From assembly GCA_001774495.1 (NCBI GenBank), contig MFAE01000008.1:16150-57218 (forward strand): a stretch of DNA of 41,069 nt. Direction: 5' to 3'. The notes beneath the pieces are model-generated. The model searched no databases, was not told the origin of the DNA, and saw nothing but the letters and a program-made list of their open reading frames with translations. This DNA is from Candidatus Campbellbacteria bacterium RIFOXYC2_FULL_35_25 (lineage in GTDB: Bacteria > Patescibacteriota > Minisyncoccia > Phycocordibacterales > UBA12079). The position numbers were made by a program, and so were the translations under genes. This document shows positions 771 through 38,954 of this stretch, one piece after another (position 1 is the stretch's first letter; each line of letters opens with the position of its first letter).

Positions 771-1253
771 TTAGGGGTAAATTCTTCTTCTCCCCGCCAG
801 TCTTTTTTTCTGCCTTAATTTGATGATATCAATCACTTGTTCTGCTGTTTTTTCTAGCGGAACATCGACTCCTCCATCCATTAAGACGTCAATTTGTTCC
901 GCGTAGTTTTGGTCAGGGTTGATAACCGCACGGATACTTACTTCGATGCTGTCAAAGATTATCCTTGCACTAGCCCCTGTGGAAGAATACAAAGGCGTTC
1001 CCATCAATGTAAAAATTTCAATCACTGTTGAATCGACCCCGAGCATTCTGGCAATAAGTTGTTGAAGTTCCTTTGCTAGAGTAGTTTTGGGCCTCCTTGG
1101 GTCCCATGGCTGTCGGCACCTTATGTCGATTTCTCTTCCTGAAAAATGCTCTGTGCATTTAGTGCATTCTCCAAAAACCTGAACCCCCATAGTCCGATCA
1201 TTGTATAGAGGCCCTCTTCTGAAGTCTTTTAGCCCGTTTGTTCTTCTTCCCAT
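771..1253 (-). CDS. Hypothetical protein (160 aa), GC-richer orphan with SD
   Basis: Intact ORF; GGAGG 6 nt before ATG; own promoter and terminator. Confidence 0.75.
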   Translation of the reverse strand: MGRRTNGLKDFRRGPLYNDRTMGVQVFGECTKCTEHFSGREIDIRCRQPWDPRRPKTTLAKELQQLIARMLGVDSTVIEIFTLMGTPLYSSTGASARIIFDSIEVSIRAVINPDQNYAEQIDVLMDGGVDVPLEKTAEQVIDIIKLRQKKRLAGRRRIYP

Positions 1254-1259
1254 CGTTAT

Positions 1260-1333
1260 CCTCCACCCCCGTTGAGGTTAAACAATTTTGAACATCCTGA
1301 TACTCATAATATAAAAAAAATATTTTTTGTCAA
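1260..1333 (-). promoter_or_regulatory. TTGACA-N16-TATTAT promoter plus GGAGG Shine-Dalgarno
   Basis: Read directly from the reverse complement of 1260-1333. Confidence 0.7.
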
Positions 1334-1393
1334 TGGTTTTGGGTTTTAAGAAATAAAATTTATTTTTTAAATTTTTAATGTATCATGTTAGAT

Positions 1394-1873
1394 ATGGATA
1401 ATAACAAAGAAATTTTTTTAATTTTGCACAACATCAGAAGTGTTTATAATGTTGGGGCTATTTTTCGAACAGCTGATGCTTGTGGGGTTTCAAAAATATT
1501 TTTAACTGGATATACCCCTTCTCCGACAGACAGATTTGGACGAGCCAGGAAAGATATTAGCAAATCAGCTTTGGGCGCAGAGAAAAATATTCCATGGGAA
1601 CATCTTCCCAAAGTATCAGAATTATTAAGAGAATTAAAAGAACAAAAAATTCAAATAGTTGCTGTTGAACAATCAAAAGATTCCATTGATTATAAAAAAT
1701 TAAAAATAAATAAATCCACAGCTTTTATTTTCGGGAACGAGGTTGATGGAGTAGATAAAAGTATCCTCGGAGATGTAGACAAAATTATTGAAATTTCTAT
1801 GCTCGGCAAAAAAGAATCTCTCAACGTTTCCGTTTCAGCAGGGGTTGTTTTGTTTCGGGTTCTTAATGTTTAA
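1394..1873 (+). CDS. TrmH/SpoU family RNA methyltransferase
   Basis: ILHNIRSVYNVGAIFRTADA, GNEVDG, KESLNVSVSAG SPOUT motifs. Start taken at the second ATG (7 nt after TATCAT); 1385 is the alternative. Confidence 0.9.
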   Translation: MDNNKEIFLILHNIRSVYNVGAIFRTADACGVSKIFLTGYTPSPTDRFGRARKDISKSALGAEKNIPWEHLPKVSELLRELKEQKIQIVAVEQSKDSIDYKKLKINKSTAFIFGNEVDGVDKSILGDVDKIIEISMLGKKESLNVSVSAGVVLFRVLNV

Positions 1874-1937
1874 AATTAAATGTTGATAATAAACACATAG
1901 AAAGAATAATTAAATTAGAGTATTATATAAGGAGTAT

Positions 1938-3686
1938 ATGCGAATAGACAAAAAAAAGCTCGAAGAATTTATTAAAGACTCAGGTCTTGTTTCTAAATCT
2001 GATTTAGAAATGGCAATAGTAGAGGCAGAAAAAAGTGATTCCGATGTTGCTAATATTTTGGTTGGGATGGGGAAGCTCACCGAAGATGAAGTAAGAAGGA
2101 TTAAAGCCTATATTTTAGGGATTCCTTTTATAAATCTCGTTGGGAAAAAAATTGATTTTGATGTTTTGTCTATTATTCCAGAGCCTATTGCGAGAAACCA
2201 TAATATTATTGCATTTAAGAAAACAGACACAGAACTTGAAGTTGCTATGTTGAATGTAGACGACTTGGAAGCAATAAACTTTATAAAAAAGAAAGTAGAC
2301 CTAAAGATTCTCCCTCGTTTAACTGGAGAAGACTCCATCAAGAACACACTCCTTCAATATCAAAAAACTTTGAAGGCAGAGTTCGGTGACATAATTCAAA
2401 AACAATCTCAATCACTTGAAACCATTCCGGTGGAGAATATGGACAATATCTCTAAAGAAGATTTAAAAAAAATAGCAGAAGATTTGCCTGTTATTCGTAT
2501 AGTAGATACATTATTAAAACACGCGATAATACAAGACGCTTCAGATATTCATATTGAACCAATGGAGGACAAACTTCTCGTCCGCTATAGAATAGATGGA
2601 ATGCTTCACGACGCCATGATTTTACCAAAAAATGCGGCAGCTAGTATCACTGCGAGAATAAAGGTTTTGTCCAACCTAAAACTTGATGAAAAGAGGTTGC
2701 CCCAGGACGGCCGTTTTAAGGTAAAAGCAGAAGACCAAGAAGTTTCTTTTAGAGTTTCTATTCTTCCTGTTTATCACGGTGAGAAAGCCGTTTTGAGACT
2801 TTTGAAGGAAAGCGTTTCGGGCCTTACCCTAGAAGTTCTTGGTTTCCATGGCGATGGTTTGGAGAGAATTTATTCTGCTATGAAACGAAAAACTGGTATG
2901 ATTTTAACAACTGGTCCGACTGGGTCAGGTAAAACTACCACTCTTTATACACTTTTAGATAACTTGAATGAACCCAGTGTAAATATTTCTACAATAGAAG
3001 ACCCGATAGAATATCAAATGCCCAGAATAAATCAAACTCAAGTTAAGCCAGATATTGGTTTTACTTTTTCAAGCGGATTAAGGTCCCTTGTTCGTCAGGA
3101 CCCCGATATTATCATGGTGGGTGAGATTAGAGATAATGAAACTGCCTCTTTGGCAGTCAATGCAGCCCTAACAGGACACTTAGTTTTATCGACACTCCAC
3201 ACAAACTCAGCCGCAGGAGCGATGCCTAGATTTATTGATATGAAAATAGACCCGTTTTTACTCGTGTCGACTTTGGGGGTAATTATTGGGCAGAGACTTG
3301 TTCGTCGCTTGAATGATGATGGGGAAAAATATTTCTTATCGAAATCAGAAATTACTTCTCTGGGCAAGCTTGTTGATTTGGACAGGATGTTATTTTTTTT
3401 GAGGAAAGAAAAAATTATTGGGCAAACTGAGACTTGGGCCAATATCCCTTTTTATAAACCAAAAGTAAAAGAAGGTTCCGATGGATATGCAGGAAGAGTT
3501 GGTATTCATGAGATTTTGCCGGTTTCTAGCACGATAAAAGATTTGATCATTAAAAATGCGACATCAGAGAAGATAGAGGAACAAGCGAAAGACGAAGGGA
3601 TGATGACGATGATTGAAGATGGTATTTTTAAAGCTAGTCAGGGGATTACGACTATTGAGGAAGTTTTGCGAGTTATTTCCGAGTAA
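1938..3686 (+). CDS. pilB: Type IV pilus assembly ATPase, GspE/PilB family
   Basis: ASDIHIEP, RYRIDG, PQDGR, Walker A GPTGSGKTT, EDPIEY, RQDPDIIMVGEIRD, TGHLVLSTLH. Confidence 0.93.
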   Translation: MRIDKKKLEEFIKDSGLVSKSDLEMAIVEAEKSDSDVANILVGMGKLTEDEVRRIKAYILGIPFINLVGKKIDFDVLSIIPEPIARNHNIIAFKKTDTELEVAMLNVDDLEAINFIKKKVDLKILPRLTGEDSIKNTLLQYQKTLKAEFGDIIQKQSQSLETIPVENMDNISKEDLKKIAEDLPVIRIVDTLLKHAIIQDASDIHIEPMEDKLLVRYRIDGMLHDAMILPKNAAASITARIKVLSNLKLDEKRLPQDGRFKVKAEDQEVSFRVSILPVYHGEKAVLRLLKESVSGLTLEVLGFHGDGLERIYSAMKRKTGMILTTGPTGSGKTTTLYTLLDNLNEPSVNISTIEDPIEYQMPRINQTQVKPDIGFTFSSGLRSLVRQDPDIIMVGEIRDNETASLAVNAALTGHLVLSTLHTNSAAGAMPRFIDMKIDPFLLVSTLGVIIGQRLVRRLNDDGEKYFLSKSEITSLGKLVDLDRMLFFLRKEKIIGQTETWANIPFYKPKVKEGSDGYAGRVGIHEILPVSSTIKDLIIKNATSEKIEEQAKDEGMMTMIEDGIFKASQGITTIEEVLRVISE

Positions 3687-3810
3687 ATAATTTCAAAATA
3701 GGATTAAATTATTTTAAAGCGATGGAAAAATATAAATACAAAGAAACTAAAAACAAAATAAAACAAAAAAAGGCTGTCCGACAGCCTAATTTTTTGTTGT
3801 GAATTTTTTT

Positions 3811-3840
3811 CTACTCACTACCAACTACAAACTACTCACT
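3811..3840. repeat. Heptamer repeat (CTACTCA family) upstream of pilC
   Basis: ctactcactaccaactacaaactactcact. Confidence 0.8.
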
Positions 3841-3894
3841 AAACCAATCTATTCACTTTTAACTTTATGCTTTCTACCTTATACTTATGAATAT

Positions 3895-5106
3895 ATGCCC
3901 GTATTTAAATATAAAGCAATAAAAGAAACAGGGGAGGTTTACAATAGCTCAACCGGTGCAAAAGACGAGGAGGAGCTGAAAAAGATAATAAGAGATCAAG
4001 GAGGGTCACTTATTAGTTGTGAGAAGGGGATGGGAGGATGGGGTTCCCTTAAAAATATTTCTTTTGGGGGTTCTGTAAAAATGCAGGACAAAATTATATT
4101 TGCGAAAAATTTAGCGGCTATGATTAGTGCGGGGCTTTCTGTTTCAAAATCATTAACTACTTTAGAAAAACAATTTAAAAATCCATTATTTAAAAAAGTC
4201 ATAGGCGAGATAAATGTAAAGATTAAAGGGGGGCAAACTATAGGTGCTTCAATGAAAGATCATCCAAAAGTTTTTTCTCCACTATTTGTTTCTATGGTAA
4301 GGGCGGGAGAGGAAAGCGGAAATATTTCAAATTCTTTAATGATTGTTTGCGAACAAATGGAAAATTCTTATGCTTTAAAAAAAAGAGTGAAGGGGGCATT
4401 AATTTATCCAACAATAATCTTCATTGTTATGATGATTATTGGAGTGTTGATGCTTATTTTTATAGTACCAACTCTTCAGGCTACTTTTGCTGATTTAGGG
4501 ACCGATTTACCGTTTAGTACTCAGATTATAATTTCTACTAGTGATCTTTTAAAGAATCATTCGATTCTTTTTATTGCTATTGTTTTTGCTATTGTTTTTC
4601 TTATTATTCTTGCTTTTAAAACCAAAAAAGGTCAGAGAATTATTGATATCATATCTTTGAAAACTCCCATGATTTCTTCTATTACCAAAGAGATAAATTC
4701 TGCTTATACCGCGAGGACATTATCTTCCCTTCTTTCTTCGGGGGTTGATGTTTTAAGTGCTTTTGAGATTACTGAAGATGTTTTGCAGAATTCATTTTAT
4801 AAAGAGGTTCTCGGAAAAGCGAGGGAGGGAATTCAAAAAGGAGATCCTGTGGCGGATGTTTTTCTTAAGAATGAAGACTTGTTTCCTCCGATTGTTAGTG
4901 CCATGGTTGAGGTTGGAGAAGAAACTGGAAAATTACCAACCATGCTTCTAAGTGTGGCAGATTTTTACGAAAAAGAAGTTGCCCAAAAAACAAAAAACAT
5001 GTCAGTAATCATTGAACCTGTTTTAATGGTGTTTATTGGTTTGGCTGTTGGCTTTTTTGCGGTTTCTATGATTACCCCAATGTATTCGGTAATGGCGAAT
5101 ATATAA
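3895..5106 (+). CDS. pilC: Type IV pilus platform protein, GspF/PilC family
   Basis: MPVFKYKA start, AGEESG, ALIYP, GEETGKL, IEP motifs; two T2SSF repeats with TM segments. Confidence 0.93.
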   Translation: MPVFKYKAIKETGEVYNSSTGAKDEEELKKIIRDQGGSLISCEKGMGGWGSLKNISFGGSVKMQDKIIFAKNLAAMISAGLSVSKSLTTLEKQFKNPLFKKVIGEINVKIKGGQTIGASMKDHPKVFSPLFVSMVRAGEESGNISNSLMIVCEQMENSYALKKRVKGALIYPTIIFIVMMIIGVLMLIFIVPTLQATFADLGTDLPFSTQIIISTSDLLKNHSILFIAIVFAIVFLIILAFKTKKGQRIIDIISLKTPMISSITKEINSAYTARTLSSLLSSGVDVLSAFEITEDVLQNSFYKEVLGKAREGIQKGDPVADVFLKNEDLFPPIVSAMVEVGEETGKLPTMLLSVADFYEKEVAQKTKNMSVIIEPVLMVFIGLAVGFFAVSMITPMYSVMANI

Positions 5107-5112
5107 TTTAGG

Positions 5113-5216
5113 ACAAAGAAACAAAGAAACAAAGAAACAAAGAAACAAAGAAACAAAGAAACAAAAAAACAAAGAAACAAAGAAACAAAGAAACAAAGAA
5201 ACAAAGAAACAAAAAA
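5113..5216. repeat. Octamer tandem repeat (ACAAAGAA)6 ACAAAAAA (ACAAAGAA)5 ACAAAAAA, 13 units
   Basis: Counted directly; fills the pilC-pilin intergenic region. Confidence 0.97.
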
Positions 5217-5227
5217 TAATAAATATT

Positions 5228-5725
5228 ATGATGAGAAAAAACTTAAATCTACTCACTACTCACTACTCACTACAAACTAAATCCGGATTTAGCTTGTTAG
5301 AAATGTTGTTTGTGATTGGAATTATGGCAATTCTTTTTTTGATAGGAACAAAAATTTTTTCAAATTCGAGTCCAAAGTATAAAGTTGATAATGCCGTCGT
5401 TATTGTTTTAAATTTATTAAATGAAGCAAAATCAATGACATCCTCGGCTGTAGGTTCTTCTCAGTATGGAGTTCATTTTGAAACAACAACCCTAACCCTA
5501 TTTAAGGGAGAAACTTTTTCTGCAGTTGATCCAAATAACAGAGAAATAATTTTAAATGAAAATGTTAATCTTTCAAATATAAGCCTTGCTGGAGGAGGGG
5601 CTGATGTCGTCTTCAATAAATTAATAGGGACAACTGATCATCATGGGACGGTAACTATTTCTCTCGTCTCTGATTTATCTGTGAATGAAATAGTTACAAT
5701 TTTATCAACAGGAATCTCTTACTAA
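5228..5725 (+). CDS. Minor type IV pilin (prepilin N-methylation domain)
   Basis: Class III signal G|FSLLEMLFVIGIMAIL. Confidence 0.88.
   Translation: MMRKNLNLLTTHYSLQTKSGFSLLEMLFVIGIMAILFLIGTKIFSNSSPKYKVDNAVVIVLNLLNEAKSMTSSAVGSSQYGVHFETTTLTLFKGETFSAVDPNNREIILNENVNLSNISLAGGGADVVFNKLIGTTDHHGTVTISLVSDLSVNEIVTILSTGISY
5249..5278. repeat. (CTACTCA)3-CTACAAA-CT heptamer repeat inside the prepilin leader coding region
   Basis: Encodes LLTTHYSLQT upstream of the G|F cleavage site. Confidence 0.85.
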
Positions 5726-5728
5726 ATC

Positions 5729-6211
5729 ATGCTTAAAAATATAGATAAAACAAAAGGTTCAGGATTTGTAGAGTTGATAATCGGCTTATCAATAATTTTT
5801 GTGGCCCTCACTTCCGTTGTTTCTTCTTATAATTTTTTCTTTAAGGTTGCTAAAAATAACACGAAAGTAATAAAAGCTGAGTTTTTGTTAGAAGAGGGGG
5901 TTGAGGTTTTAAAATTTGTAAGAGATTCTGATTGGACTAATATCTCAAGTCTTTCCTCTGGTTCTGATTATTATTTGTCGTTTGACGGCAGTCTCTGGAG
6001 TGTTTCAAACACTAATGTTTACATTGACGATACTTATGAGAGAAAGTTTGTCATTTCTGATGTCTATCGAGATGTTGATGATAATATTGCCGGTATGGGG
6101 GCTCTCGATATAGGGACAAAGGATATCGAGGTTTTTGTTTCTTGGTTGAGTTCAGGGGCCACATCGACGAGATCAATCAATATAATTTTAACGGATTTAT
6201 TCAGTGAATAA
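5729..6211 (+). CDS. Minor type IV pilin (PilV-like), atypical KG|SGFVE cleavage site
   Basis: Basic leader, E at +5, hydrophobic helix; position in the operon. Confidence 0.8.
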   Translation: MLKNIDKTKGSGFVELIIGLSIIFVALTSVVSSYNFFFKVAKNNTKVIKAEFLLEEGVEVLKFVRDSDWTNISSLSSGSDYYLSFDGSLWSVSNTNVYIDDTYERKFVISDVYRDVDDNIAGMGALDIGTKDIEVFVSWLSSGATSTRSINIILTDLFSE

Positions 6212-6213
6212 AT

Positions 6214-6723
6214 ATGTCATATAAAAAAGGATTTTCATTAATAGAGGTTTTGGTTTATATAGCGGTTATGGTTATCGTTCTGCTTATTGTTGTTAATACC
6301 GCGTTACTCATGACTAAAGCTTATCAGGAAATGAGGTTGTCAGTAAACATGAATAATTCCGCCGTAAGTATTTTAGAAAGAATGAGTCGTGAGGCGCGGT
6401 GGTCTTCTAGTGTTAATACCACGGATAGTATTTTGAATAATAATTCTGGCCTCTTAGTTTTGAATAGAATTGATGAGTCGGAAGTGACAACTGAAATTAG
6501 GTTTTATATTGAAAATGGTAGTTTGGTGATAAAAGAAGGGTTGTCTGATGCTGTGGCTTTGAACGCGCCAGGTAAGGTTTTTGTTGATAAATTTTTTGTA
6601 ACAAGGATTGATAGCGGGATATCAGAAATGGTAAAGATTGAAATTGAATTAAGAGGGATGTTGAAGGACAGAATAAAAATGGAAACATTCTATGACTCGA
6701 TTATTTTAAGAGAGTCCTATTGA
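6214..6723 (+). CDS. Minor type IV pilin (PilW-like)
   Basis: KKG|FSLIEVLVYIAVM. Confidence 0.88.
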   Translation: MSYKKGFSLIEVLVYIAVMVIVLLIVVNTALLMTKAYQEMRLSVNMNNSAVSILERMSREARWSSSVNTTDSILNNNSGLLVLNRIDESEVTTEIRFYIENGSLVIKEGLSDAVALNAPGKVFVDKFFVTRIDSGISEMVKIEIELRGMLKDRIKMETFYDSIILRESY

Positions 6724-6729
6724 ATGTTG

Positions 6730-6915: not shown

Positions 6916-6923
6916 AAAACATT

Positions 6924-9804: not shown

Positions 9805-10938
9805 ATGAAAAATATATTAGAAGTTGAAAATTTGAAAGGAAAGAAAGTTTTACTAAGACTTGATTTAAATGTACCAATAGAAAATGGGGCTATAAAAAGT
9901 GACTTTCGAATAAGAAAAATATTACCCACGATTGATTTTTTGCAGAAACAAGGGGCAAAGATTATAATTTTAAGCCATATTGGTAGGGAAAAAACAAATA
10001 CGTTAGAGCCAGTTTTTAATTATTTAAAAAATAAGATAAATCTGACTTTCGTTGAAGATATTTTGTGTGACGAAACGAAGAAGATTGTTGAAAAGATGAA
10101 TAATGGTGACATCATACTGTTCGAGAACCTAAGAAAATATGATGGTGAGGACAAAAATGATGATAGTTTCACGAAGACGTTGGCAGCATTCGGAGACGTC
10201 TATATTAATGAAGCCTTTGCTTTCTCTCACAGGGAAGCTTCCTCTGTCGTTGGTTTGCCACAATATCTTCCTAGTTATTCTGGCATTTTGTTTAAAAAAG
10301 AAGTTGAAATGTTGTCACAAAGTTTTAATTCTCCCCACCCATCTATTTTTATCTTAGGTGGGAACAAGTTTAATACAAAATTACCATTGATAGAAAAGTT
10401 CTTAAATCGTGCCGATTTTGTTTTTGTAGGAGGAGCGCTGGTAAATAATTTACTAATAAGCAAAGGTCTTGAAGTCGGTATGTCTTTGGTGGCAGAAGGG
10501 AAGTTTGATTTAAGCGGTCTATTGAGTAATAAAAAATTAGTTTTGCCGGTAGATTTAGTTGTTAACAAGAACGGAAGCGTCGTTGTAAAGCCGGTTAATG
10601 AAATTGCTAGTGACGAAATTATTTTAGATATTGGACATGAGACAATTTTAAAATTGAAAAAAATAATTGAGGGTGCAAAGTTTATTTTGTTTAACGGACC
10701 TTTAGGTGATTACACCAAGGGCTTTGATAGAGCTACTTCTAGTTTAGTAGAAATCATTGCTAACTCTGGGGCAGAATCTGTTATTGGCGGAGGAGACACT
10801 GTTGCTTGTATTTCGGAGCTAGGCCTTGAAGATAAAATTGGTTTTGTTTCAACTGGCGGAGGAGCTATGCTAGAGTTTTTGTTAAATGAAGACCTCCCAG
10901 GAATAAAAGCTTTAAATAATTCCAAAATTAAGGCCTAA
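9805..10938 (+). CDS. pgk: Phosphoglycerate kinase
   Basis: RLDLNVP, SHIGR, FENLR, GGGDT, STGGGAMLEFL. Confidence 0.97.
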   Translation: MKNILEVENLKGKKVLLRLDLNVPIENGAIKSDFRIRKILPTIDFLQKQGAKIIILSHIGREKTNTLEPVFNYLKNKINLTFVEDILCDETKKIVEKMNNGDIILFENLRKYDGEDKNDDSFTKTLAAFGDVYINEAFAFSHREASSVVGLPQYLPSYSGILFKKEVEMLSQSFNSPHPSIFILGGNKFNTKLPLIEKFLNRADFVFVGGALVNNLLISKGLEVGMSLVAEGKFDLSGLLSNKKLVLPVDLVVNKNGSVVVKPVNEIASDEIILDIGHETILKLKKIIEGAKFILFNGPLGDYTKGFDRATSSLVEIIANSGAESVIGGGDTVACISELGLEDKIGFVSTGGGAMLEFLLNEDLPGIKALNNSKIKA

Positions 10939-11039: not shown

Positions 11040-11060
11040 GACTTTCTATAGAAAATTAAA

Positions 11061-11104: not shown

Positions 11105-11188
11105 TCATAGACATTTTCTCATCGCCTTTTGGAAGGAATCCCAGTCTGTAATCAGAAAAATTGTTATCTTACAAAATGTTTGCTCCAT
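11105..11188 (-). CDS. 27-aa small ORF MEQTFCKITIFLITDWDSFQKAMRKCL
   Basis: GAGGT 8 nt before ATG; TGnTAAACT overlapping the HIT stop; terminator right after the stop; below the ORF-track cutoff. Confidence 0.45.
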   Translation of the reverse strand: MEQTFCKITIFLITDWDSFQKAMRKCL

Positions 11189-13608: not shown

Positions 13609-13697
13609 ATCTATGAGTTTGACTTTATCTGGGGATTTTGGTTAAATCGTTGTTAGAAACGTTTCAGAAACTAATTTTTAATAAGGAGGGGGAACCA

Positions 13698-13886
13698 ATG
13701 GCTCAGGAAAGTGTAAGGAACGCTGTTATAGGAGTTTTTGGTGAAGTGATTTGTGGTTCTGGGCATCGGAGGAAAGTTTCTGATATGACGGATAGCGAGC
13801 TCGGGGATTTTTTGGCCGAGACTCTCAAATCAACGCAGTACATTAATTCTCAGCAAAGGAAGAGGCTCGAGAAGACCCTTCAATAA
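13698..13886 (+). CDS. Hypothetical protein (62 aa), orphan with SD
   Basis: AAGGAGGGGG before ATG 13698; TTGACT upstream; hairpin ATACCCCGC/GCGGGGTAT at 13907-13939. Confidence 0.65.
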   Translation: MAQESVRNAVIGVFGEVICGSGHRRKVSDMTDSELGDFLAETLKSTQYINSQQRKRLEKTLQ

Positions 13887-24752: not shown

Positions 24753-24925
24753 ATTTTTGTTATTATGGCAGATTTCTTTGCCTTTGGGATAATTTTTTGA
24801 GATTACGTATGGGAAAAACTACCCAAACTATATTTAGTGTAGAATACATTTTATGAAATATCAATCGAGAAAATCCCCCGTTACCCTTGTTTCTTCATCG
24901 GGTTAATAAAGGCCGGACCTTTTTG

Positions 24926-24982
24926 TTGTATAAAAAAAAGCCCCACGAAGTGAAGCGGGGGGCTTCTTTCGTGGGACTGGGT
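24926..24982 (-). terminator. Repeated terminator element, copy A
   Basis: Near-identical to 25818-25876; directly follows the stop of 24982..25215. Confidence 0.8.
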
Positions 24983-25215
24983 TAGTAGCAGGAATTAATC
25001 CATGTGGCTATTGATAGTATCTGGCTGGTTTCTTCGGTGGGTTCATTCATGAGAGGAAAGATTCTTCTTCTTAGGAATTTCTCCTGTTTGGTGTTCAGCA
25101 CAGTTTCCTTGTTTACTGCCAAGGTTAGCTCGTCGACGAATCTGTGGTAAGAGGTACTGTCTTTATGGGTTGGGTTGTTTTTGATGTCACGCAAAATAAG
25201 TAGGATATTTTTCAT
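24982..25215 (-). CDS. Hypothetical protein (77 aa), orphan with SD
   Basis: AAGGAG before ATG, overlapping the upstream stop. Confidence 0.65.
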   Translation of the reverse strand: MKNILLILRDIKNNPTHKDSTSYHRFVDELTLAVNKETVLNTKQEKFLRRRIFPLMNEPTEETSQILSIATWINSCY

Positions 25216-25227
25216 AACCCTGTCTCC

Positions 25228-25710
25228 TTAGCGATGATTTTGGGCATCACCAACAGTTTGTTGTTCCATTTTTTCTGGTTTGAAAGATCTGGGGACATTT
25301 CTCAAAGGAACTCTAGAGAGATAAAGTTTAGCGTCTAGAATTCCTTCGGGGAAACGACCTATTTTTTTTACATTTTTTCTCGATGGGTCCAAGATACTCC
25401 CTCTTTCTCTTTGCTCTTTTAAACCATGATAAAAATCAATCGTGCATCTTACTGCTGTGTTGTACATGAAGCAAAATTCTTCCCAAGGAATTTGCTCGCG
25501 CTCTCCTTCTTTTTTAATTTTAAAAATTTCTCTTAAGTAAGCTCCTTGCATCTCTGATTCTTCATAATTTAATTGAGAAATATGAAAAAGAAAATCGAGA
25601 GTAAAGCTTTCGCTAAATTTTTTTTCGTAGACCCTTAGTATTATTTTGTAACTTTTGCCCTCAACAATTTCTTGGACAGTTATTTGGATACAAACAGTTT
25701 TATTATCCAT
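25228..25710 (-). CDS. Hypothetical protein (160 aa), orphan with SD
   Basis: AAGGGGGGG before ATG; TTGCTC and TGnTAGATT promoter boxes upstream. Confidence 0.7.
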   Translation of the reverse strand: MDNKTVCIQITVQEIVEGKSYKIILRVYEKKFSESFTLDFLFHISQLNYEESEMQGAYLREIFKIKKEGEREQIPWEEFCFMYNTAVRCTIDFYHGLKEQRERGSILDPSRKNVKKIGRFPEGILDAKLYLSRVPLRNVPRSFKPEKMEQQTVGDAQNHR

Positions 25711-25817
25711 GATTGACCCCCCCTTGTTCTTTTTTTGATAGGACTTCCTTTATTTAATCTAGCATATATCCTGGTGTAGGAGCAAGGGAAGTGGTTTAAA
25801 TAAAGAAAATAGAAAAT

Positions 25818-25876
25818 TTGTATAAAAAAAGAAGCCCCACGAAGTGAAGCGCGGGGCTTCTTTCGTGGGGCTGGGT
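25818..25876 (-). terminator. Repeated terminator element, copy B
   Basis: AAGAAGCCCC/GGGGCTTCTT stem; 7 nt after the purC stop. Confidence 0.8.
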
Positions 25877-25883
25877 CGTTAGG

Positions 25884-26912
25884 TTAGATGATGATACCCA
25901 TGTTGAATTTTTGATACTCGGGAAGAGACTTCCCAGTGAGGCGTTCAAAAATCTCAAGATACCGTCGGGTTGTTTCTGCGATAATCTCTTCAGGGAGCTT
26001 CAATTGGTGAACCCATTCGACATGCTCTTTATTTTCGGGGTCGAGCCCTTTGAGGCCAATAATGTTTTCACCCTCCTTTGTAAAAGGAGTGATTATTTTT
26101 TCTCCCCATTGCCGAACAACTTGCTTGTCTAAAAAGTTCGGCTCACGGCCATCTCTCATGGCTTGTTCCCAATCTTTTTCGTCGCAGAAGCGGGAAGAGT
26201 CTGGAGTGAAGACTTCATCGGCAATTATGCCGAAATCAGCCTCAAGCTTTGTATCAAGAACGAGGATACCTCGTTCTTTGGCAAAGGCATAAACTCTTTC
26301 GTAAGCTCTTTGGAGCATCCCCACAAGCTCACGGCCTTCTTCACCATGATTATCCAGAAAGCTCGAGGCATTAATGTTTTCATCGTGCCCAGATTCTTCT
26401 TTGGTTGAGGGTGTAAAAAGAGGAACCATGAGGCGTGACCATTTTGGGAGATTCGGGGGAAGTTTTTGTCCGCCCGCCGTTCCTGTTCGTTGGTATCCTT
26501 TGAAGACTGACCCTCCGAGATGATGCCTAAAAATGAATTCATAGGGCAAAATATCTACAGCCTTTACGACTAGAGATCTTTTCAGATCAAGTGAAGGGAA
26601 TTGCGACAAAAGATCCATCGCAGCATTCTGGCTAGGGTACTTGTTCGAAAATACCAGATGGTTGGGGAAATCTTTCAACACCGTATTTAGCCAGAAATGT
26701 ACCATGGCGGTGAGAACTTCTCCCTTGTAAGGAATCAGTGCGTTTAGGACGAAGTCAAAAATGCTGATTCTGTCCGTGGCAACAATGAGGAAATTTTTCA
26801 AGAGAGCGTACATATCCCTTGTTTTTCCTCGGTAAGTTAACATCATCATTTTCCTGAGCAGATAAAGACTGAGCTCTGTTTCTTTGACCGCGATTGGAAT
26901 TTTCGCTCCCAT
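25884..26912 (-). CDS. purC: SAICAR synthetase
   Basis: GKTRDMY, ATDRISIFD, IPYKGEVLT, FTPSTK, GHDENI, DTKLE, DEVFTPDSSRF, DKQVVRQW. Confidence 0.88.
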   Translation of the reverse strand: MGAKIPIAVKETELSLYLLRKMMMLTYRGKTRDMYALLKNFLIVATDRISIFDFVLNALIPYKGEVLTAMVHFWLNTVLKDFPNHLVFSNKYPSQNAAMDLLSQFPSLDLKRSLVVKAVDILPYEFIFRHHLGGSVFKGYQRTGTAGGQKLPPNLPKWSRLMVPLFTPSTKEESGHDENINASSFLDNHGEEGRELVGMLQRAYERVYAFAKERGILVLDTKLEADFGIIADEVFTPDSSRFCDEKDWEQAMRDGREPNFLDKQVVRQWGEKIITPFTKEGENIIGLKGLDPENKEHVEWVHQLKLPEEIIAETTRRYLEIFERLTGKSLPEYQKFNMGIII

Positions 26913-27077
26913 GAGTGATTCTCCTTGTTGAATGTACAGTTTTTTAATACCTCGAGTTATTCGAGAATACTCTATTTCCGAGAGTAACCTTACTACGAGA
27001 AGGGTGTTTGAGTCAATGATTTTGGTAGCTTAAATAAAATATTTTGGTTATCATGAATAGCATATAATTAAATTGAT

Positions 27078-28902: not shown

Positions 28903-29124
28903 TGTGGAGATGGGGAGAATTGGTCACGAGTCACTAAGCATATTTTTCGTGCTTCGCACTCAAATCTGCTAAGTGCTCTCGACCCCGCCTCACTGTTGCT
29001 CCTGCGTCGCAACATGTTCCGGCTTTCGATTCTCGCTCGCAAAGTACGCAGGTACTTTGCTCATCTCCACATAATATAAAAACCGCCAGCTTATTGCTGG
29101 CGGTTTTTATATTATGTGGAGATG
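28903..29124. repeat. Direct and inverted degenerate copies of the tmRNA 3' end interleaved with hairpins
   Basis: tgtggagatggggagaat at 28903; ttcgattctcgc...catctccaca at 29028-29071; 29-bp perfect inverted repeat 29062-29090/29096-29124. Confidence 0.8.
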
Positions 29125-29489: not shown

Positions 29490-29577
29490 CTAAAGAATTT
29501 TATTTATTTTAATAAAATGCTTAAAATGAATGACCGATTTTTTATTTCAATGAACATTTTCTACTTACTACCAACTG

Positions 29578-30024
29578 CTAACCAATTTTTACCTCTCTTT
29601 GAATATCCCGCTCAGTGTCACGTTTCTTGATGTCCTCTCTTTTATCAAATTTCTTTTTTCCACGGACAACGGCGATTTCAACCTTGATTTTGTTGCCTTT
29701 AGTATACATCGAAATAGGTACTATTGTCAATCCTCTCTTCTCCTCAAAACTTTGCAGTTCCTTCAGTTCTTTCTTTGTTAAAAGTAGGCGTCTATTCCTC
29801 TCTCTATCGTAACTAGCGGGTGTATTTACTGGTTGGTAGGGGGGAATATTAGAGTTCAGTAAAAAAGCCTCTCCTCCTCGGATAGTTATATGAGAACCCT
29901 CAATATTTCCGTGCTTTGATTTTATGGATTTTACTTCAAAGCCGAAGAGTTCAATTCCAGCTTCAAATTTTTCCATAACCTCATAATTAAAGGTTGCTTT
30001 TTTGTTTCTTATTAATGTTGCCAT
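29578..30024 (-). CDS. smpB: SsrA-binding protein
   Basis: NKKATFNY, EAGIELFGFEVKSI, RNRRLLL, GKKKFDKR. Confidence 0.97.
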   Translation of the reverse strand: MATLIRNKKATFNYEVMEKFEAGIELFGFEVKSIKSKHGNIEGSHITIRGGEAFLLNSNIPPYQPVNTPASYDRERNRRLLLTKKELKELQSFEEKRGLTIVPISMYTKGNKIKVEIAVVRGKKKFDKREDIKKRDTERDIQREVKIG

Positions 30025-30053
30025 TAGCCCTATAATAGCAGTAGAAACCTAAC

Positions 30054-30082
30054 TTGACAAGCACTTGTGCTTGTGCTATCCT
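30054..30082 (+). promoter_or_regulatory. TTGACA-N17-TATCCT promoter with extended -10
   Basis: Read directly; divergent from smpB. Confidence 0.75.
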
Positions 30083-30140
30083 TTGCGCAGAGATTTAGGG
30101 TTTGTTATTCTTTATTAATTTCTTATTGAAGGAGATCGGT

Positions 30141-30545
30141 ATGGCACTGCGCGACATTTTCAGAGATGGATTGGAGCAGGCAAGGGTTTCTTTTCCTCAG
30201 CACGGTTTTTCTAGCCTGCTGGAAAAGAAGGAGTGGGCGACCAAGGTCGTCGAAGATTGGGCTCGCTCTCAGTATGGGCAGGTTATTATGGCAATGAGGT
30301 CTCCCAGCCACCACTCGGTGACGGGGACGACTGCCGAGTTCTTCATCCCTGGCAAAAAATTGGTCGTTCTCTTTGTTGTCGAACCTCGGCACAACCTGAA
30401 CAAGGAAATTATTTTGACGGCTGCCGAGTACGATGACAACGAGGCGGGTGTCTTGGAGCAGATTGACCAAACATTGGTCAAAGCCTCTCCTAAAGACCGA
30501 CTTACACATCAGCCTTTCGCCGGCTTGGGCCAAATGGTTATTTAA
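30141..30545 (+). CDS. Hypothetical protein (134 aa), GC-richer orphan with SD
   Basis: GAAGGAG before ATG 30141; terminator-like hairpin near 30565-30605. Confidence 0.7.
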   Translation: MALRDIFRDGLEQARVSFPQHGFSSLLEKKEWATKVVEDWARSQYGQVIMAMRSPSHHSVTGTTAEFFIPGKKLVVLFVVEPRHNLNKEIILTAAEYDDNEAGVLEQIDQTLVKASPKDRLTHQPFAGLGQMVI

Positions 30546-30664
30546 ATGATAAGCTCTTTATTTAAAAAAAGCCCCACGGTTTCATCGCCATGGGGTTTTT
30601 CTTTTTTTTAAAAAAATTAAAGTTTTCTTTATTTGTCTATTGGCTTTGTGTATAATAGTTTTAT

Positions 30665-32575
30665 ATGAAAGATATTTTTAACAACAAAGAAACAGACAAA
30701 AAGAAGGGGGGTAAGAAGTTGCCCAAAAAATCTGTACCAATGCAGTTTTTTGGCAATTTTTTGAGCACCCTGTTAATTTTTATGATTATCTTGACGGTCT
30801 ATCTTTCGGTTTCTGAAGAGAATAAAGACATTGAAGAAATATCAATCTCTGACCTTGTGACATCTATAAAGGCCGATGAAGTAGAATCTATTGTTGTTGA
30901 AGGAGAAAAATTAAATATTGCATATACAGATGGACAGGAAAAATTTACAAAGAAAGAAGTGGAATCTTCTCTTTTAGAAACTTTGGTAAATTATGGGGTG
31001 ACTACAGAAGAGTTGAGTCAAATTAATATAGATGTAAAACGCCCAACAGGTTTTTCTTTTTGGCTATCAGCACTTGCTCCTTTTCTTATTCCAATTCTTT
31101 TCATCGCCGTTCTTATTTGGTATATGTCTCGGCAAGTCAAAGGAGCAGGGATGCAAGCTTTTAATTTTGGACAGTCAAAAGCTCGTTTCATAGATCCAAA
31201 TGACAAAAAACAAAGAGTTACTTTTAAGGATGTGGCTGGAGTAAAAGAAGCCAAACAAGAATTGCTAGAAATTGTTGATTTCTTAAAAAACCCTAAAAAG
31301 TTTTTGAGTATTGGGGCTGAAATACCAAAGGGGGTTATCTTAATGGGTGCTCCTGGAACAGGAAAAACTCTTTTAGCGAGAGCTGTAGCTGGTGAAGCCG
31401 GTGTCCCATTTTTCTCAATCTCTGGTTCAGAATTTGTTGAGATGTTTGTGGGGGTGGGAGCTTCGCGAGTTCGTGACTTGTTTAAGATGGCTAAAAAGAC
31501 AGCTCCTTCTATTGTTTTTATCGATGAAATTGATGCTGTTGGACGTGTGAGAGGAACTGGTGTCGGAGGAGGAAATGACGAAAGGGAACAAACTTTAAAT
31601 CAGATATTAGTTGAGATGGATGGTTTTGAGCCGAATGAAAAAGTTATCGTAGTAGCGGCAACCAACAGACCTGACGTTTTGGACCCCGCACTTTTAAGAA
31701 CAGGAAGATTTGACAGAAGGGTGGTGGTTGATTTGCCTGATCGTGAGGATAGAGAAGCAATTTTAAAAATTCACGCTCGTAAAAAACCATTAGCAGAAGA
31801 TGTAAACTTGGAGGTTATTGCACAAAGAACCCCTGGATTTTCTGGTGCAGATTTGTATTCCTTAATGAACGAGGGCGCCATATTGGCGGCAAGAGAAGAC
31901 AGAACTAAGGTTTCCCAATTTGATTTTATCCGAGCCATCGAAAAAGTGATGCTCGGTCCAGAAAGAAAAAGCCACATTCTTTCTGTAAAAGAAAAAGAAA
32001 TTACAGCTTATCACGAAGTTGGGCATGCTTTGATTTCTTCTGTTTTAAAACATGCGGACCCTGTGCACAAAGTTTCTATTATTTCCAGGGGACGAGCTGC
32101 CGGCTACACTTTGCATCTTCCTTTGATTGAGAAAAGATTACATTCCAAAAAAGATTTCCTTGATGATATTGTCGTTTCTTTGGGGGGATACACAGCAGAA
32201 AAAATGATTTTTGATGATGTTACGACCGGTTCTTCCAATGACTTGCAAGTAGCGACTGCTGTAGCCCGTGACATGGTTACAAAGTATGGGATGTCAGACG
32301 AAATTGGACCTATTGCTCTCGAGGAACAAGGAGGAAGAATCATGATGGGTGGTGCTGGGGTTTCTAGTAAAGACCATTCAGAAAAAACTACTTATTTGAT
32401 AGACACCGAGGTTTCAAAAATTATGAATCATGCCCTAGAAAGAGCCAAACAAACTTTAATTGAAAACAAAAAAGCTCTTGATAATATAACTAAGCGGCTC
32501 GTAGAGGTGGAAACTCTTGAAAGAGAAGAGTTTGAAAATCTTTTGATTGCAAACGGAATAACACCGAAGAAATAA
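30665..32575 (+). CDS. ftsH: ATP-dependent zinc metalloprotease FtsH
   Basis: Two TMs, [29 protein letters not shown] zinc site. Confidence 0.97.
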
Positions 32576-32595
32576 GAGGCATCTTATTTCTTCGG
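32564..32595 (+). terminator. Hairpin formed from the last ftsH codons and their inverted copy
   Basis: ccgaagaaataag-aggcat-cttatttcttcgg (13-bp perfect stem). Confidence 0.65.
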
Positions 32596-32759
32596 AATTT
32601 CTAATTTCTAATTTCTAAAAAAATTCAATAATACTAAAATACCAAAATTTTCGCGGTCGCGAAAATTTTGGTATCCTTGAATTTTTTTATTCAGGATTCA
32701 TAATTCTTTATTCATAATTCCATTTAATTCTGATAGAATTAAATATAAGGTATCAAATT

Positions 32760-33206
32760 ATGAAAAAAAGACTAATACTTATTTTAATTGTAACGGCACT
32801 GATTGTTTGGGATCAAGCCTATATTCCTGATAATTTAGGTTCTTTCCAAAAACAAGCAGAGGAGATTTATAAAGATAGAGTATTGCCAACAAAAAAATTT
32901 ACAACGGACGGTTGTTCAATGTGGCCGAACTCAACGGCTGGTTATTCTTGGGAAGAATTATGTATAGAACATGACATTGCTTATTGGATGGGAGGGACAG
33001 AACAAGAAAGACTTGAGGCTGACCAAAAATTCAGAGATGGCGTAAATAAAATTTCACCATTTGTTGGAGACGTTATGTATTATGCTGTTCGTTTGGGTGG
33101 AAATAAATGGGTCCCAGCTCCTTGGCGTTGGGGTTATGGCTGGGCTTATCCTTACGACGAACAAGAGGTAATTGTTTGGGATGAATTGCATAATAATAAG
33201 CTCTAA
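32760..33206 (+). CDS. Exported protein with a prokaryotic phospholipase A2-like motif
   Basis: Signal/TM anchor; TDGCS, CIEHDIAY (His-Asp), ERLEADQKF. Confidence 0.6.
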   Translation: MKKRLILILIVTALIVWDQAYIPDNLGSFQKQAEEIYKDRVLPTKKFTTDGCSMWPNSTAGYSWEELCIEHDIAYWMGGTEQERLEADQKFRDGVNKISPFVGDVMYYAVRLGGNKWVPAPWRWGYGWAYPYDEQEVIVWDELHNNKL

Positions 33207-33318
33207 TTATTTTTAATGAAAAAGTTAGTTGGGTTGATTAAATAATGATTTTTAGGTAAAGTTTGATATACTTTTAGTTGTTTGGTCGTATTTATACATA
33301 AATTTTTGAAAATTTTGT

Positions 33319-33391
33319 GCGCGTGTAGCTCAGTTGGTAGAGCGCAGAGCTTATACCTCTGTGGTCCCAGGTTCGAGTCCTGGCGCGCGCA
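33319..33391 (+). tRNA. tRNA-Ile(UAU)
   Basis: GCGCGTG/CGCGCGC acceptor, GCTC/GAGC D-stem, CAGAG-CT[TAT]AC-CTCTG anticodon arm, CCAGG-TTCGAGT-CCTGG T-arm; 73 nt; CCA not encoded. Confidence 0.93.
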
Positions 33392-33404
33392 CAAAGTTTT
33401 TAAA

Positions 33405-33709
33405 ATGTGTGGTAGCTCAGTTGGACAAAAAGCAAATTTCTTTGCTTTTTGTCCGGTTTTTGTTGAAAGCAAAAAATTTTCGTTATCGAGCGAAGCGAGA
33501 TAGGAAATAGGAGGAAGAGTGCAGAGCTTATAATTTCAAGCGAGGACGACATAAAAATAAATAAAATAATTTTTTTGTTATTTTATTTATTTTTGTATTG
33601 TCCGAGTGATGGAATTATATCGAAGATATATCTCTGTGGTTTGCCGTTGCTTTAAATTGTTTTTAAATTAAAACAATTTAAAGAGGTTCGAGTCCTGGCG
33701 CGCGCACCA
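33405..33709 (+). pseudogene. Second tRNA-Ile(UAU) copy split by three hairpin insertions
   Basis: Segments tagctcagttgg (to 33424), gagtgcagagcttata (33517-33532), ctctgtggt (33632-33640), aggttcgagtcctggcgcgcgcacca (33684-33709). Confidence 0.85.
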
Positions 33710-33817
33710 AGTTTTTAAAATTATACTTTAAGTTGTATTATTTTCTATATCATGGTTCAATTAAGTTAGAAGTATTGGGGTATTAAATAGTATTCAACCA
33801 AAAGAGGAGGATCGATT

Positions 33818-34024
33818 ATGCGACATTTTGTCAGAATCAACCCGTCTTTGGTAGAAGCTGTTATCTTACACACGCCAGGCAAAAAGAGACCCGCTGTTAT
33901 TTTTGTTGGACTCGGGACAAGGAATGATCCTGTTGAAATCATTGAAAGATACTCGTCTCAAAATGTATGTGACATTTCGGAGTTGGATGGGACCGTCCAT
34001 GTCTTCTCAACAGGAAATTGTTAA
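33818..34024 (+). CDS. Hypothetical protein (68 aa), orphan with SD
   Basis: GAGGAGG before ATG; terminator-like hairpin 34044-34078. Confidence 0.6.
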   Translation: MRHFVRINPSLVEAVILHTPGKKRPAVIFVGLGTRNDPVEIIERYSSQNVCDISELDGTVHVFSTGNC

Positions 34025-34098
34025 TGGTCCAGAACAGAGCCCACCCCTTTCTCGCGAGAGAAGGGGCATTTTTTTATTTAATTTCTTGTGATTTAGAG

Positions 34099-34124
34099 AA
34101 GGCCACCGTACGGGCGGTGGCCTT
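34099..34124. terminator. Hairpin between convergent orphan genes
   Basis: AAGGCCACCG-tacggg-CGGTGGCCTT. Confidence 0.7.
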
Positions 34125-34159
34125 GGTCCCATTTTGGGAAAATATTTTCGCAAAGATTT

Positions 34160-34357
34160 TTATTTTTTCTCTTCGCGACAAAACTCACACTCACACCCCA
34201 GGGGGTGTTCTCCTCTTCCACCGACAACTACAGCTGGGGCATTTGTTCCCTTTGAGATTCTGGTTCCTCCTGGTAATGTATGCATGTTTCCGCAGGACCT
34301 CGCTTTGTGGGAGCTGCCCCTAGCACTTCTTCCCCAACCGCCTCTGCCTTTTGCCAT
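34160..34357 (-). CDS. Small basic Gly/Arg-rich protein (65 aa) with a C-terminal CxCxxC
   Basis: AAAGGA before ATG 34357; TAGACA-N17-TATTAT promoter upstream. Confidence 0.55.
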   Translation of the reverse strand: MAKGRGGWGRSARGSSHKARSCGNMHTLPGGTRISKGTNAPAVVVGGRGEHPLGCECEFCREEKK

Positions 34358-34467
34358 GGTTTGTTTTCCTTTGTTGAGATTATTGCCGACCAACTTGTCT
34401 AAATTTCTGCGCTAAATAATATATTATTGTATAGATTCTGTCTATTTTTTGTTTCTATTTTGTATTT

Positions 34468-37463: not shown

Positions 37464-37473
37464 GAAAAGATTA

Positions 37474-37509
37474 AATAAAAAATACCAACGCAAGTTGGTA
37501 TTTTTTATT
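37474..37509. terminator. Bidirectional terminator
   Basis: AATAAAAAATACCAAC-GCAA-GTTGGTATTTTTTATT. Confidence 0.8.
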
Positions 37510-38070
37510 GTGCGGAGAGGGAGGGATTTGACCTCCCAGTTCTAAGTTCGGACTTCGCCTTTCGGATTGCAAAGTTTGGAGGGATTTGGTCACAAAGTTT
37601 AGGTTTCGATGGGGAGGGATTTGACCTCCCAGTTCTAATTTCAGACTTCGCCCCTTCGGGACTCGTCTTCACTAAGAACTCGTAGGCTCGTCGCTCAAAT
37701 TTTTCTTTCGCTTCGCTACAGAAAAATATATTCGCTCTTGTTCAAATCCCTCCCTCACTTTAACAGCGACACAAAATAAAAACACTGCTTTGGCAGTGTT
37801 TTTATTTTGGTCGTGCGGAGAGATTGTCCACTTCGCTCGAACCTATTTTGAAAAGCAATCGCGAAGCGATTGAAGTTTAAATCTTACGCTCCGAGCAAAA
37901 GATAATTTCAAACCATAACTTACGCTCGACTAAATCGGAAGTTTGAAACAAACGAAACGACTTGTCGTTTCCACTTCGTTCCAACGACAACCAACTCCAA
38001 AAAAAATTCTTTTCCTTTTCTCTAAAAAATTTTGGGGGGCGAAAAAAGAAAGGAAAAAACGCAAAGAAAT

Positions 38071-38252
38071 TTTTTTGGGTTGGTTTCTGCTCATACTTCA
38101 CAGAAAGTCGTTTCTTAGTCGGATGTTTTAGATTCATTTTGTTTTCGTCGCTCGCTCTGTTGTAAAAAACACATTGCCTTTGGCAATGTGTTTTTTACAA
38201 CTCGCTCTCTCACGAAAACAAAACGAAACTAAAACGCTATTTATCTTGTGTT
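38071..38252. repeat. 182-bp direct repeat, copy 1 (nested hairpin)
   Basis: Identical to 39501-39681 except for one deleted C. Confidence 0.95.
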
Positions 38253-38378
38253 GTCTTTATTGAAATATAAAAATTTTTATTGAAAAAACAAGAAGATTAT
38301 GGAATAATAACAAAACTGAGTGGTGGTCACTCAGTAGTATTTTTTTAAAGTTCTTTTAAAACATTATGAGGTGGTAAC

Positions 38379-38954
38379 ATGCAAGTAGCTCAAGCTCAAA
38401 ATTTTGTTCCTCAAGTAAAAACCGTTCAGTTGTTTGATACCAAACAACAACCAACTCTCGGTCGAGAAATCATCCCAGCGGTTCATGGCGAGTATTATGG
38501 CTATTCTTCTGTATTTACAAGAGAAAGGCCCCTTTATGCACTAATGAAGTGTAAATCCAACAAAGATCGACCTGTAAGCGAGATTGTTGATTTAGGTTTA
38601 GAAGCTAATGCCTTCTTCCGGTTTAATGAGACGGATCAAAAGATCATCTCGATAAAAACAGCAAATAATCTCGGCTTACTACAGAGAGGAAAGACAAAAA
38701 TCGATTTTGATGACATCTGGTTCGCCCCAACTAACCTTACAGCCAAGCAATTTATGAAATTGCAGGCTAATAAAAACGAAAAAGAGTTGGTAAACTTATG
38801 CCAAAAAATACTTATCAACGGTCGTGATGCCGTTGAACTTCGCAAAGGATTGGTTGTGACGATGATGACCAGTAGTGAAAAATACGGCATGTTTTTGGTG
38901 AGCAAAATTACACCATTCTCAATTCAAATTGAGGCATGTCACATTTTGCTTTGA
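38379..38954 (+). CDS. Hypothetical protein (191 aa), cassette gene with SD
   Basis: GAGGTG before ATG; terminator ACACCACAGGA/TCCTGTGGTGT at 38976-39002. Confidence 0.75.
   Translation: MQVAQAQNFVPQVKTVQLFDTKQQPTLGREIIPAVHGEYYGYSSVFTRERPLYALMKCKSNKDRPVSEIVDLGLEANAFFRFNETDQKIISIKTANNLGLLQRGKTKIDFDDIWFAPTNLTAKQFMKLQANKNEKELVNLCQKILINGRDAVELRKGLVVTMMTSSEKYGMFLVSKITPFSIQIEACHILL

Follow-up and report, generated by a model that had tools for sequence, protein, structure and literature searches.

Strong Shine-Dalgarno motifs before probable accessory cassettes in a Parcubacteria genome whose 16S rRNA lacks the anti-Shine-Dalgarno sequence

Pairing of the Shine-Dalgarno (SD) motif with the anti-SD sequence of 16S rRNA is the textbook route of bacterial translation initiation. 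In Bacteroidetes, including Flavobacteriia, SDs are rarely used and only a few genes, such as rpsU, keep strong ones, the anti-SD being encoded but sequestered on the ribosome. For Escherichia coli a contested proposal holds that MazF generates a 'stress ribosome' without an anti-SD, which prefers leaderless mRNAs. Among Parcubacteria, the anti-SD motif was found to be missing in about half of the group (Tsurumaki et al., 2022, RNA 28:1041; PMC9297842). The loss was read there as a feature of the ribosome, SD helices being inferred not to form, and the parts of that report dealing with the loss do not mention a co-resident gene class with strong, conserved SDs. Here we analyze a 41,069-nt stretch of DNA (C8:16150-57218, hereafter the window) of a genome of 782 kb in 15 contigs with 35% GC. 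The source organism comes from groundwater and is assigned to the Parcubacteria of the candidate phyla radiation (CPR), since its FtsH shares 77-78% identity with the FtsH proteins of Candidatus Campbellbacteria GW2011_OD1_34_28 (CP011215) and one Patescibacteria metagenome-assembled genome. Our analysis confirmed a real, genome-wide class of SD-led genes, which are probably horizontally exchanged accessory cassettes with a leadered, SD-bearing expression grammar of their own, residing in a genome without an anti-SD and with a putatively leaderless core.

The genome carries a single 16S rRNA gene, the tail of which reads GGAUUAUUUCAAAU after helix 45, where E. coli has GGAUCACCUCCUUA. Tails of the same type without CCUCC were found in about 20 16S genes of relatives, ranging from congeners to other members of the order, and in one Wolfebacteria genome, while the 16S 3' end of the GC-rich relative G031 could not be recognised. 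Within the order the tail GGAWUAUUUCAAAUUGAAC is conserved, as if functional. The absence of CCUCC after helix 45 in this genome and in all sampled relatives of the order agrees with the anti-SD loss described for Parcubacteria, but the strong, conserved SD gene class found here is not treated in the corresponding parts of that report (PMC9297842). Since 16S rRNA has no anti-SD, the SD cannot act by textbook 16S pairing. As in canonical SD genes, a GGAGG-like motif lies 5-10 nt upstream and is enriched at starts beyond chance, but the complementary CCUCC is missing from the 16S 3' end. The combination of mostly SD-free initiation with a minority of strong, conserved SDs recalls the Bacteroidetes; here, however, the anti-SD sequence itself is absent and the SD minority consists of accessory rather than ribosomal or regulatory genes. 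An earlier note on this DNA, made from the sequence alone, had proposed checking 16S rRNA for the anti-SD and did not foresee that there would be none at all.

Strict SDs were defined as GGAGG, AGGAG, GGAG or GAGG located 4-10 nt upstream of an ATG. A self-trained gene caller yielded 615 compositionally 'native' genes genome-wide, while a composition-free gene set was made of open reading frames (ORFs) of at least 120 aa picked by length alone; the closed genome of a congener (G005, 752,630 bp) was taken whole for replication. Outside the native set, 44.7% of the ATGs with an SD upstream start an ORF of at least 50 aa, compared with 15.0% of those without (Fisher p = 6e-28), and the reverse-complement motif, used as a control, showed no association with ORF opening either there or in the length-only set. 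The 121 SD-led ORFs of the genome have a mean GC of 0.42 and carry mostly (A)AGGAG(G), with the consensus AAGGAGG and a spacer peak at 6-8 nt. This consensus is sharp and shows hardly any decay, although AT pressure is strong. In the length-only set, SD-led ORFs make up 56% of those with a GC content at third codon positions (GC3) of at least 0.36 and 9% of the rest (p = 5.5e-18), a separation that the earlier note had named as a check of its proposal. The closed congener repeats the split, with an SD-less core having a -10 box at -13 and 127 SD-led ORFs (p = 3.5e-36), whose GC is 0.40 versus 0.34 in its native genes.

The SD-led ORFs are shorter than native genes (median 91 versus 248 aa), and their products are slightly basic and richer in cysteine (2.1% versus 0.5%). 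A downstream hairpin of -15 kcal/mol or stronger follows 76% of them versus 29% of native genes, and a full -35/N16-18/-10 promoter about 86 nt upstream precedes 25% versus 5%. The leader measures roughly 40-90 nt, and the units are single and scattered at about one per 6.5 kb among AT-rich core genes. At native starts G is depleted (9-10% over -13 to -4), GGAGG is not enriched, and a TANMMT hexamer begins at -14 to -12 in 110 of 613 genes; a leaderless-type -10 box occurs in 18% of native genes and in 0% of SD-led ORFs. Such a box abutting the ATG indicates, as far as sequence can tell, the geometry of leaderless mRNAs. The core would accordingly fit the known leaderless type, in which the -10 hexamer stops about 7 nt short of the start codon and no SD is present, as is also the case in G005. 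A -10 box 6-8 nt from the ATG together with a ribosome lacking the anti-SD is the combination proposed to favour leaderless mRNAs in the MazF model, but the state is here constitutive and genomic and not induced by stress. The claim of a distinct class with a different expression grammar is thereby upheld: one side has a sigma-70 promoter, leader, SD and own terminator, the other is leaderless or SD-less.

Enzymes and other recognisable proteins are among the longest ten SD-led ORFs, which include an M23 peptidase, an MFS transporter, a radical-SAM/SPASM enzyme, ThyA, dCMP deaminase, an RlpA-like protein and purC (the last scanned separately from the other nine). A paralogous or repeat origin was rejected, the SD-led ORFs being essentially all unique and mutually unrelated. 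A shared terminator or attC-like family was likewise rejected, as the downstream hairpins form no repeat family and only three pairs are alike.

In the window, 40 genes were tabulated and the flanks of every unit listed in the earlier note were read (Table 1). Recognised families include type IV pilus genes, TIM, PGK, RecJ, a ClpB-like ATPase, ComEC, SmpB, transfer-messenger RNA (tmRNA), FtsH and RecG. Strict SDs precede seven genes, in each case an (A)AGGAGG-type motif 6-9 nt from the ATG. The GC3 of these seven is 0.37-0.60, while that of the 33 other genes is 0.19-0.35 (Mann-Whitney p = 6e-5), with the doubtful ORF 34160-34357 (0.43) as the sole exception. The earlier note had described the listed genes as mostly GC-richer than their neighbours, each preceded by an SD-like site, mostly with a recognisable -35/-10 pair, and mostly orphan. 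Its first point is borne out by these values, and the boxes TTGACA at 1333 and 30054 and TAGACA upstream of 34357 are indeed present, with a strong hairpin behind every listed unit. An SD at each listed gene was found for the seven only: three listed members are weak, as 34160-34357 has AAGGA only, 25228-25710 has AAGGGGGGG and 11105-11188 is a doubtful ORF. The term orphan holds in part. A Pfam family was recognised in one of the seven SD genes versus 23 of the 33 others (p = 0.011), and the window orphans had no match in PHROGs or NCBIfam either; the class as a whole, on the other hand, contains purC, thyA, dCMP deaminase, the M23 peptidase, the radical-SAM enzyme and the MFS transporter, and two window genes, 771-1253 and 38379-38954, belong to conserved Parcubacteria families.

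Table 1. SD-led units, weak members and their signals in the window (window coordinates)
Positions	Strand	Strict SD	Description
705..770	-		Terminator of 771-1253: 14-bp GC hairpin followed by a T run; fold energy -24.5 kcal/mol
771..1253	-	yes	SD-led gene, 160 aa, GC3 0.41; GGAGG 6 nt from ATG; small conserved family
1254..1338	-		Promoter TTGACA 1328-1333, leader of ~45 nt and SD GGAGG ~1260-1264 of 771-1253
11105..11188	-		Doubtful 27-codon ORF behind GAGGT, between HIT gene and 125-nt repeat element; left out of gene count
13619..13886	+	yes	SD-led gene 13698-13886, 62 aa, GC3 0.47; TTGACT 13619-13624; AAGGAGG ~13683-13689; no family in Pfam, PHROGs, NCBIfam
24925..25732	-		Two-gene insert, 25228-25710 first, then 24982-25215; unit ends with a copy of the purC terminator
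24982..25215	-	yes	77 aa, GC3 0.52; AAGGAG 8 nt upstream
25228..25710	-	no	160 aa, native-like GC3 0.27; AAGGGGGGG upstream, a G-run in place of the SD
25809..27016	-	yes	purC 25884-26912, SAICAR synthetase, GC3 0.46; TTGACT ~27011-27016; AAGGAG 8 nt from ATG; hairpin terminator
30054..30610	+	yes	Orphan-ORF cassette: TTGACA 30054-30059, TATCCT 30077-30082, AAGGAG ~30129-30134, ORF 30141-30545 (134 aa, GC3 0.60), terminator ~30567-30610
33790..34075	+	yes	SD-led gene 33818-34024, 68 aa, GC3 0.40; GAGGAGG 8 nt upstream; hairpin and T-run terminator
34095..34450	-	no	Weak member: putative ORF 34160-34357, 65 aa, rich in G, R and C, GC3 0.43; only AAGGA; TAGACA boxes; hairpin without T run
38315..39005	+	yes	SD-led gene 38379-38954, 191 aa, GC3 0.37; upstream hairpin ~38315-38335; GAGGT 38368-38372; terminator

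It could be argued that the class is an artefact, made of chance frames in GC-rich non-coding DNA or of chimeric or contaminated contigs. GC-rich DNA does give long ORFs more easily, SD-led ORFs score poorly under the native coding model, and 11105-11188 and 34160-34357 cannot be verified as genes. However, the association of SDs with ORFs passes the null control, the same pattern occurs in the closed genome of G005, and the class includes conserved families in which residues are invariant and a fold is predicted with confidence. In addition, core genes and cassettes alternate within a few kb of each other, and the 4-kb stretch 29500-33500 is complete in one public DNA run. An artefactual origin of the class is thus scarcely credible, and stands just for individual tiny ORFs.

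The two conserved families bear on whether the SD still matters in these genomes. The 38379 family comprises 65 homologues, which are found in Campbell-, Yonath- and Wolfebacteria. GGAG or GAGG at 7-8 nt is present in the window copy and in all seven readable orthologous loci (two of which, L110 and L111, are near-identical copies), at identities of 31-68%. These loci share an upstream hairpin, while the remaining leader differs. The absence of CCUCC was verified in the 16S rRNA of the source genome and of G008 and G032, all of which hold the family. Its neighbourhood with a downstream GNAT gene is kept and the two genes co-diverge (GNAT 72%, 65% and 48% versus 62%, 59% and 49% identity for the family gene). 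At the loci L112 and L113, neighbouring genes with recognised families are SD-less and the family gene is SD-led; L113 also has SDs at other small hypothetical genes. The protein has an invariant C58 and C187-H188, and its AlphaFold2 model is a confident alpha/beta fold (predicted local distance difference test score, pLDDT, 85.6), for which the only significant PDB match was a weak one to the DUF4466 protein 4ei0 (query-normalised TM-score 0.55).

The 771 family is smaller, with 11 homologues among 1.8e9 representative proteins, and is poorly modelled by AlphaFold2 (pLDDT 51). Two homologues stand in the same context as the window gene, between SpoU and DoxX genes. A TTGACx-N17-TATAxT promoter and GGAGG at about 5-6 nt are present in three of three syntenic orthologues, in which the leader is unalignable. 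The flanking genes are 69-74% identical (SpoU about 70%, DoxX 69-74%) and the family gene 50-59%. Because orthologues keep the SD in genomes without an anti-SD while other leader sequence diverges, we lean slightly towards the motif still being under selection there; its retention is difficult to explain by a neutral relic exposed to AT pressure.

With regard to the origin of the class, homologues in the congener G005 were found for 10 of the 121 SD-led ORFs (8%), compared with 465 of the 615 native genes (76%); in the length-only set the values are 42% for SD-led genes and 76%. Five SD-led reciprocal-best pairs with G005 were convincing and all are non-syntenic, lying hundreds of kb from where the collinear native neighbours map. 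GC3 stays high in both members of diverged pairs, e.g., 0.49 and 0.51. The window orphans were not found at the syntenic loci of the two closest relatives, and 33818-34024 had no tblastn match in the syntenic loci L002 and L003. The SmpB-FtsH spacer, which measures 640 nt with 44% GC here versus 229 nt with 22% GC in the congener, represents an empty site. Among 31 sampled genomes, the source genome counted, SD-led families were present in four and in one. The lone match of 30141-30545 among 5.8e9 proteins was a 99% identical copy. The closest homologues of purC are all from Patescibacteria and at most 70% identical. The suggestion of horizontal acquisition in the earlier note is therefore supported by absence from syntenic sites, by the low share of homologues in the congener and by the non-synteny of those that are shared. 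On account of the turnover, the non-synteny, the empty sites and the confinement of homologues to Patescibacteria, we infer a flexible gene pool exchanged within Patescibacteria.

An alternative is that these genes were recently acquired from Patescibacteria that use SDs, or from other bacteria, so that the SD and the high GC are unameliorated and functionless, and translation is SD-independent, like that of internal genes of native operons. We regard such a pure relic as less likely than not. It is in line with a 16S rRNA without an anti-SD and with the very high turnover and non-syntenic position of shared members. It also finds support in purC: the homologues at 70% and 61% identity (L165 and L166), which are the closest ones, are SD-led and GC-richer, while the 53% homologue in the AT-rich relative L167 has no SD and a GC equal to its surroundings, a series that looks like plain amelioration of a foreign gene and would fit a relic SD. 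However, a relic does not readily explain SDs at constant spacing in all 38379-family orthologues examined and in three of three of the 771 family, at loci whose conserved neighbours co-diverge and whose leaders are scrambled. Nor does it sit well with a sharp consensus and scant decay in the face of AT pressure, or with core genes around the 38379-family gene that are SD-less in every genome examined, no SD-using 'home' lineage having been seen.

Apart from the purC series, several other observations weigh against exchanged cassettes with an SD that is still selected. The non-synteny of shared SD-led genes means that SD 'conservation' may partly reflect origin from a common pool and not selection in place, and retention is partly explicable if homologues were drawn repeatedly from such a pool. 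No donor lineage outside Patescibacteria was identified, the named purC and 38379-family homologues being all from Patescibacteria; family scans of the window proteins revealed no integrase or transposase family, and no recombination site was identified. The 'native' set was chosen by composition, so that GC contrasts built on it are partly circular. The distribution of GC3 has one main mode with a long right tail and not the two clean modes for which the earlier note had proposed a test, and some AT-rich genes score SD-positive too. Metatranscriptome contigs (Logan) hold the tmRNA of the organism, but no mRNA of it and no resolved 16S 3' end. Finally, no reader of the SD was found among the candidates checked, namely a hidden anti-SD, a trans RNA and CsrA.

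The first of these candidates supposes that the mature rRNA does carry CCUCC, either because an insertion behind helix 45 is excised or because the piece is encoded elsewhere as an RNA of its own, and that only the core genes abandoned the SD. rRNA insertions are common in CPR bacteria (PMC9297842), a CCTCC-bearing CGCCTCCTTCTC lies 383 nt downstream of GGAT in this genome, and ACACCTCC occurs at +257, +286 and +696 nt in three relatives. However, for most relatives, among them the two congeners whose 16S gene is complete, no CCTCC was found within 1.5 kb. An insertion before the anti-SD, with GGAT joined to CGCCTCCTTCTC, was rejected, as the CCTCC of this genome lies outside the genus-conserved blocks, the conserved trailer measuring 175 nt. 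Furthermore, Rfam revealed no group I intron in the 16S downstream region, neither this genome nor closed G005 has a second 16S gene or a separate 16S 3' end, and the tail conserved throughout the order looks functional as it is. We thus consider a hidden anti-SD improbable.

Two other candidates were also rejected. A 'new SD' complementary to the new tail is not supported, since GAAAT, TGAAA and GAAATA show no meaningful enrichment before core starts, and CsrA as a GGA-binding reader fails because no CsrA gene is present. A search for an RNA that would bind the tail in trans and supply CCUCC returned just AT-rich noise and copies of a repeat, the R-element. This is an imperfect palindrome of about 125 nt found at 10879-11051 and 13451-13620 of the window, in sense orientation directly behind the stop codons of PGK and RecJ, and in at least 16 copies genome-wide (e.g., C10:33506-33674 and C14:14936-15106). 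The element carries a conserved CACCUCCUCG. Its 3' arm has a conserved YRCYTCCTCG, often CACCTCCTCG, which is anti-SD-like and faces CTTYGTCRK of the 5' arm, and about 12 nt beyond this motif stands AAATTTGAAAT, similar or complementary to the near-palindromic tail of the 16S rRNA.

Taking the exchanged cassettes as the preferred reading, they would be gained and lost via horizontal exchange inside the Patescibacteria gene pool, and plausibly enter by way of the competence system, to which the ComEC and type IV pilus genes of the same window belong. PilB, PilC, several pilins and ComEC are encoded at 1938-6723 and 17997-19532, a DNA-uptake machinery that could admit accessory cassettes. The housekeeping RNA polymerase would then transcribe the cassettes into leadered monocistronic mRNAs. 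If the SD is still selected, it would be read by a partner other than the 16S tail, as an initiation signal or as a regulatory site. Tentatively, the organism's own ribosomes might read it via another RNA or a protein, for dedicated leadered accessory mRNAs; the balance of a functional reading lies with a regulatory site or a hidden 16S anti-SD.

The earlier note had also speculated that the class suits a host's translation machinery. In this case the cassettes would be built for the SD-dependent ribosomes of a bacterial or archaeal host, after transfer of DNA or RNA. The points in its favour are circumstantial, i.e., universal signals, an own ribosome without an anti-SD and small cysteine-rich products. 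No route of nucleic-acid export or delivery is evident, the type IV pilus and ComEC of the window pointing to uptake; the class includes enzymes of use to the symbiont itself (purC, thyA and dCMP deaminase), and named homologues are confined to Patescibacteria. The speculation is therefore not borne out, and we consider it extremely improbable.

Compared with horizontally acquired islets and strain-specific orphan ORFs, the class is alike in its atypical GC, patchiness, empty sites, many uncharacterised genes and self-contained transcription units. It differs in that no integrases, islands at tRNA sites or repeated recombination sites were identified, in that the units are scattered single genes, in that high GC3 persists in diverged pairs, and in that the translation signal has no known partner in the recipient. 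Integron cassettes are promoterless ORFs with attC-type repeats in integrase-adjacent arrays; an integron-type origin was rejected, as the units here are dispersed, have their own promoters and are followed by unrelated hairpins.

The purC region of the window deserves a separate description. The insert 24982-25710 lies between two direct copies of the purC terminator (59 nt, 93% identical; 25809-25883 and 24925-24981), and it looks as if the terminator was duplicated by, or carried in with, the insert. Elsewhere in the window, the tmRNA at 29116-29489 was matched with 0 mismatches over 356-365 nt in four groundwater or aquifer metatranscriptomes, and the organism is therefore transcriptionally active in situ. 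Behind tRNA-Ile(UAU) at 33319-33392 lies a multi-copy conserved element (33413-33519) with several matches in the congener. Outside the window, at about 87,900-88,400 of contig C2, tRNA-Ile(GAT) is located downstream of 16S rRNA together with duplicated 5' and 3' tRNA fragments. In the closed congener the 16S and 23S genes are unlinked.

Anti-SD loss was already known for part of the CPR and had been taken to mean that SD helices do not form; a sizeable gene class in such genomes, whose SDs are sharp and kept between orthologues, opens that reading to test. Either another factor reads the SD, or about 15% of the genes carry a signal that the cell cannot use. If the signal is unusable, the finding bears on the expression or silencing of foreign genes in ultra-small symbionts. 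In practical terms, gene callers trained on a single start model can be expected to mis-handle one of the two classes in such genomes, and an SD flag offers a cheap marker of the flexible genome of Parcubacteria. If the SD is indeed read without the 16S tail, translation in these organisms would run through two channels, one for a leaderless core and the other for SD-gated flexible genes.

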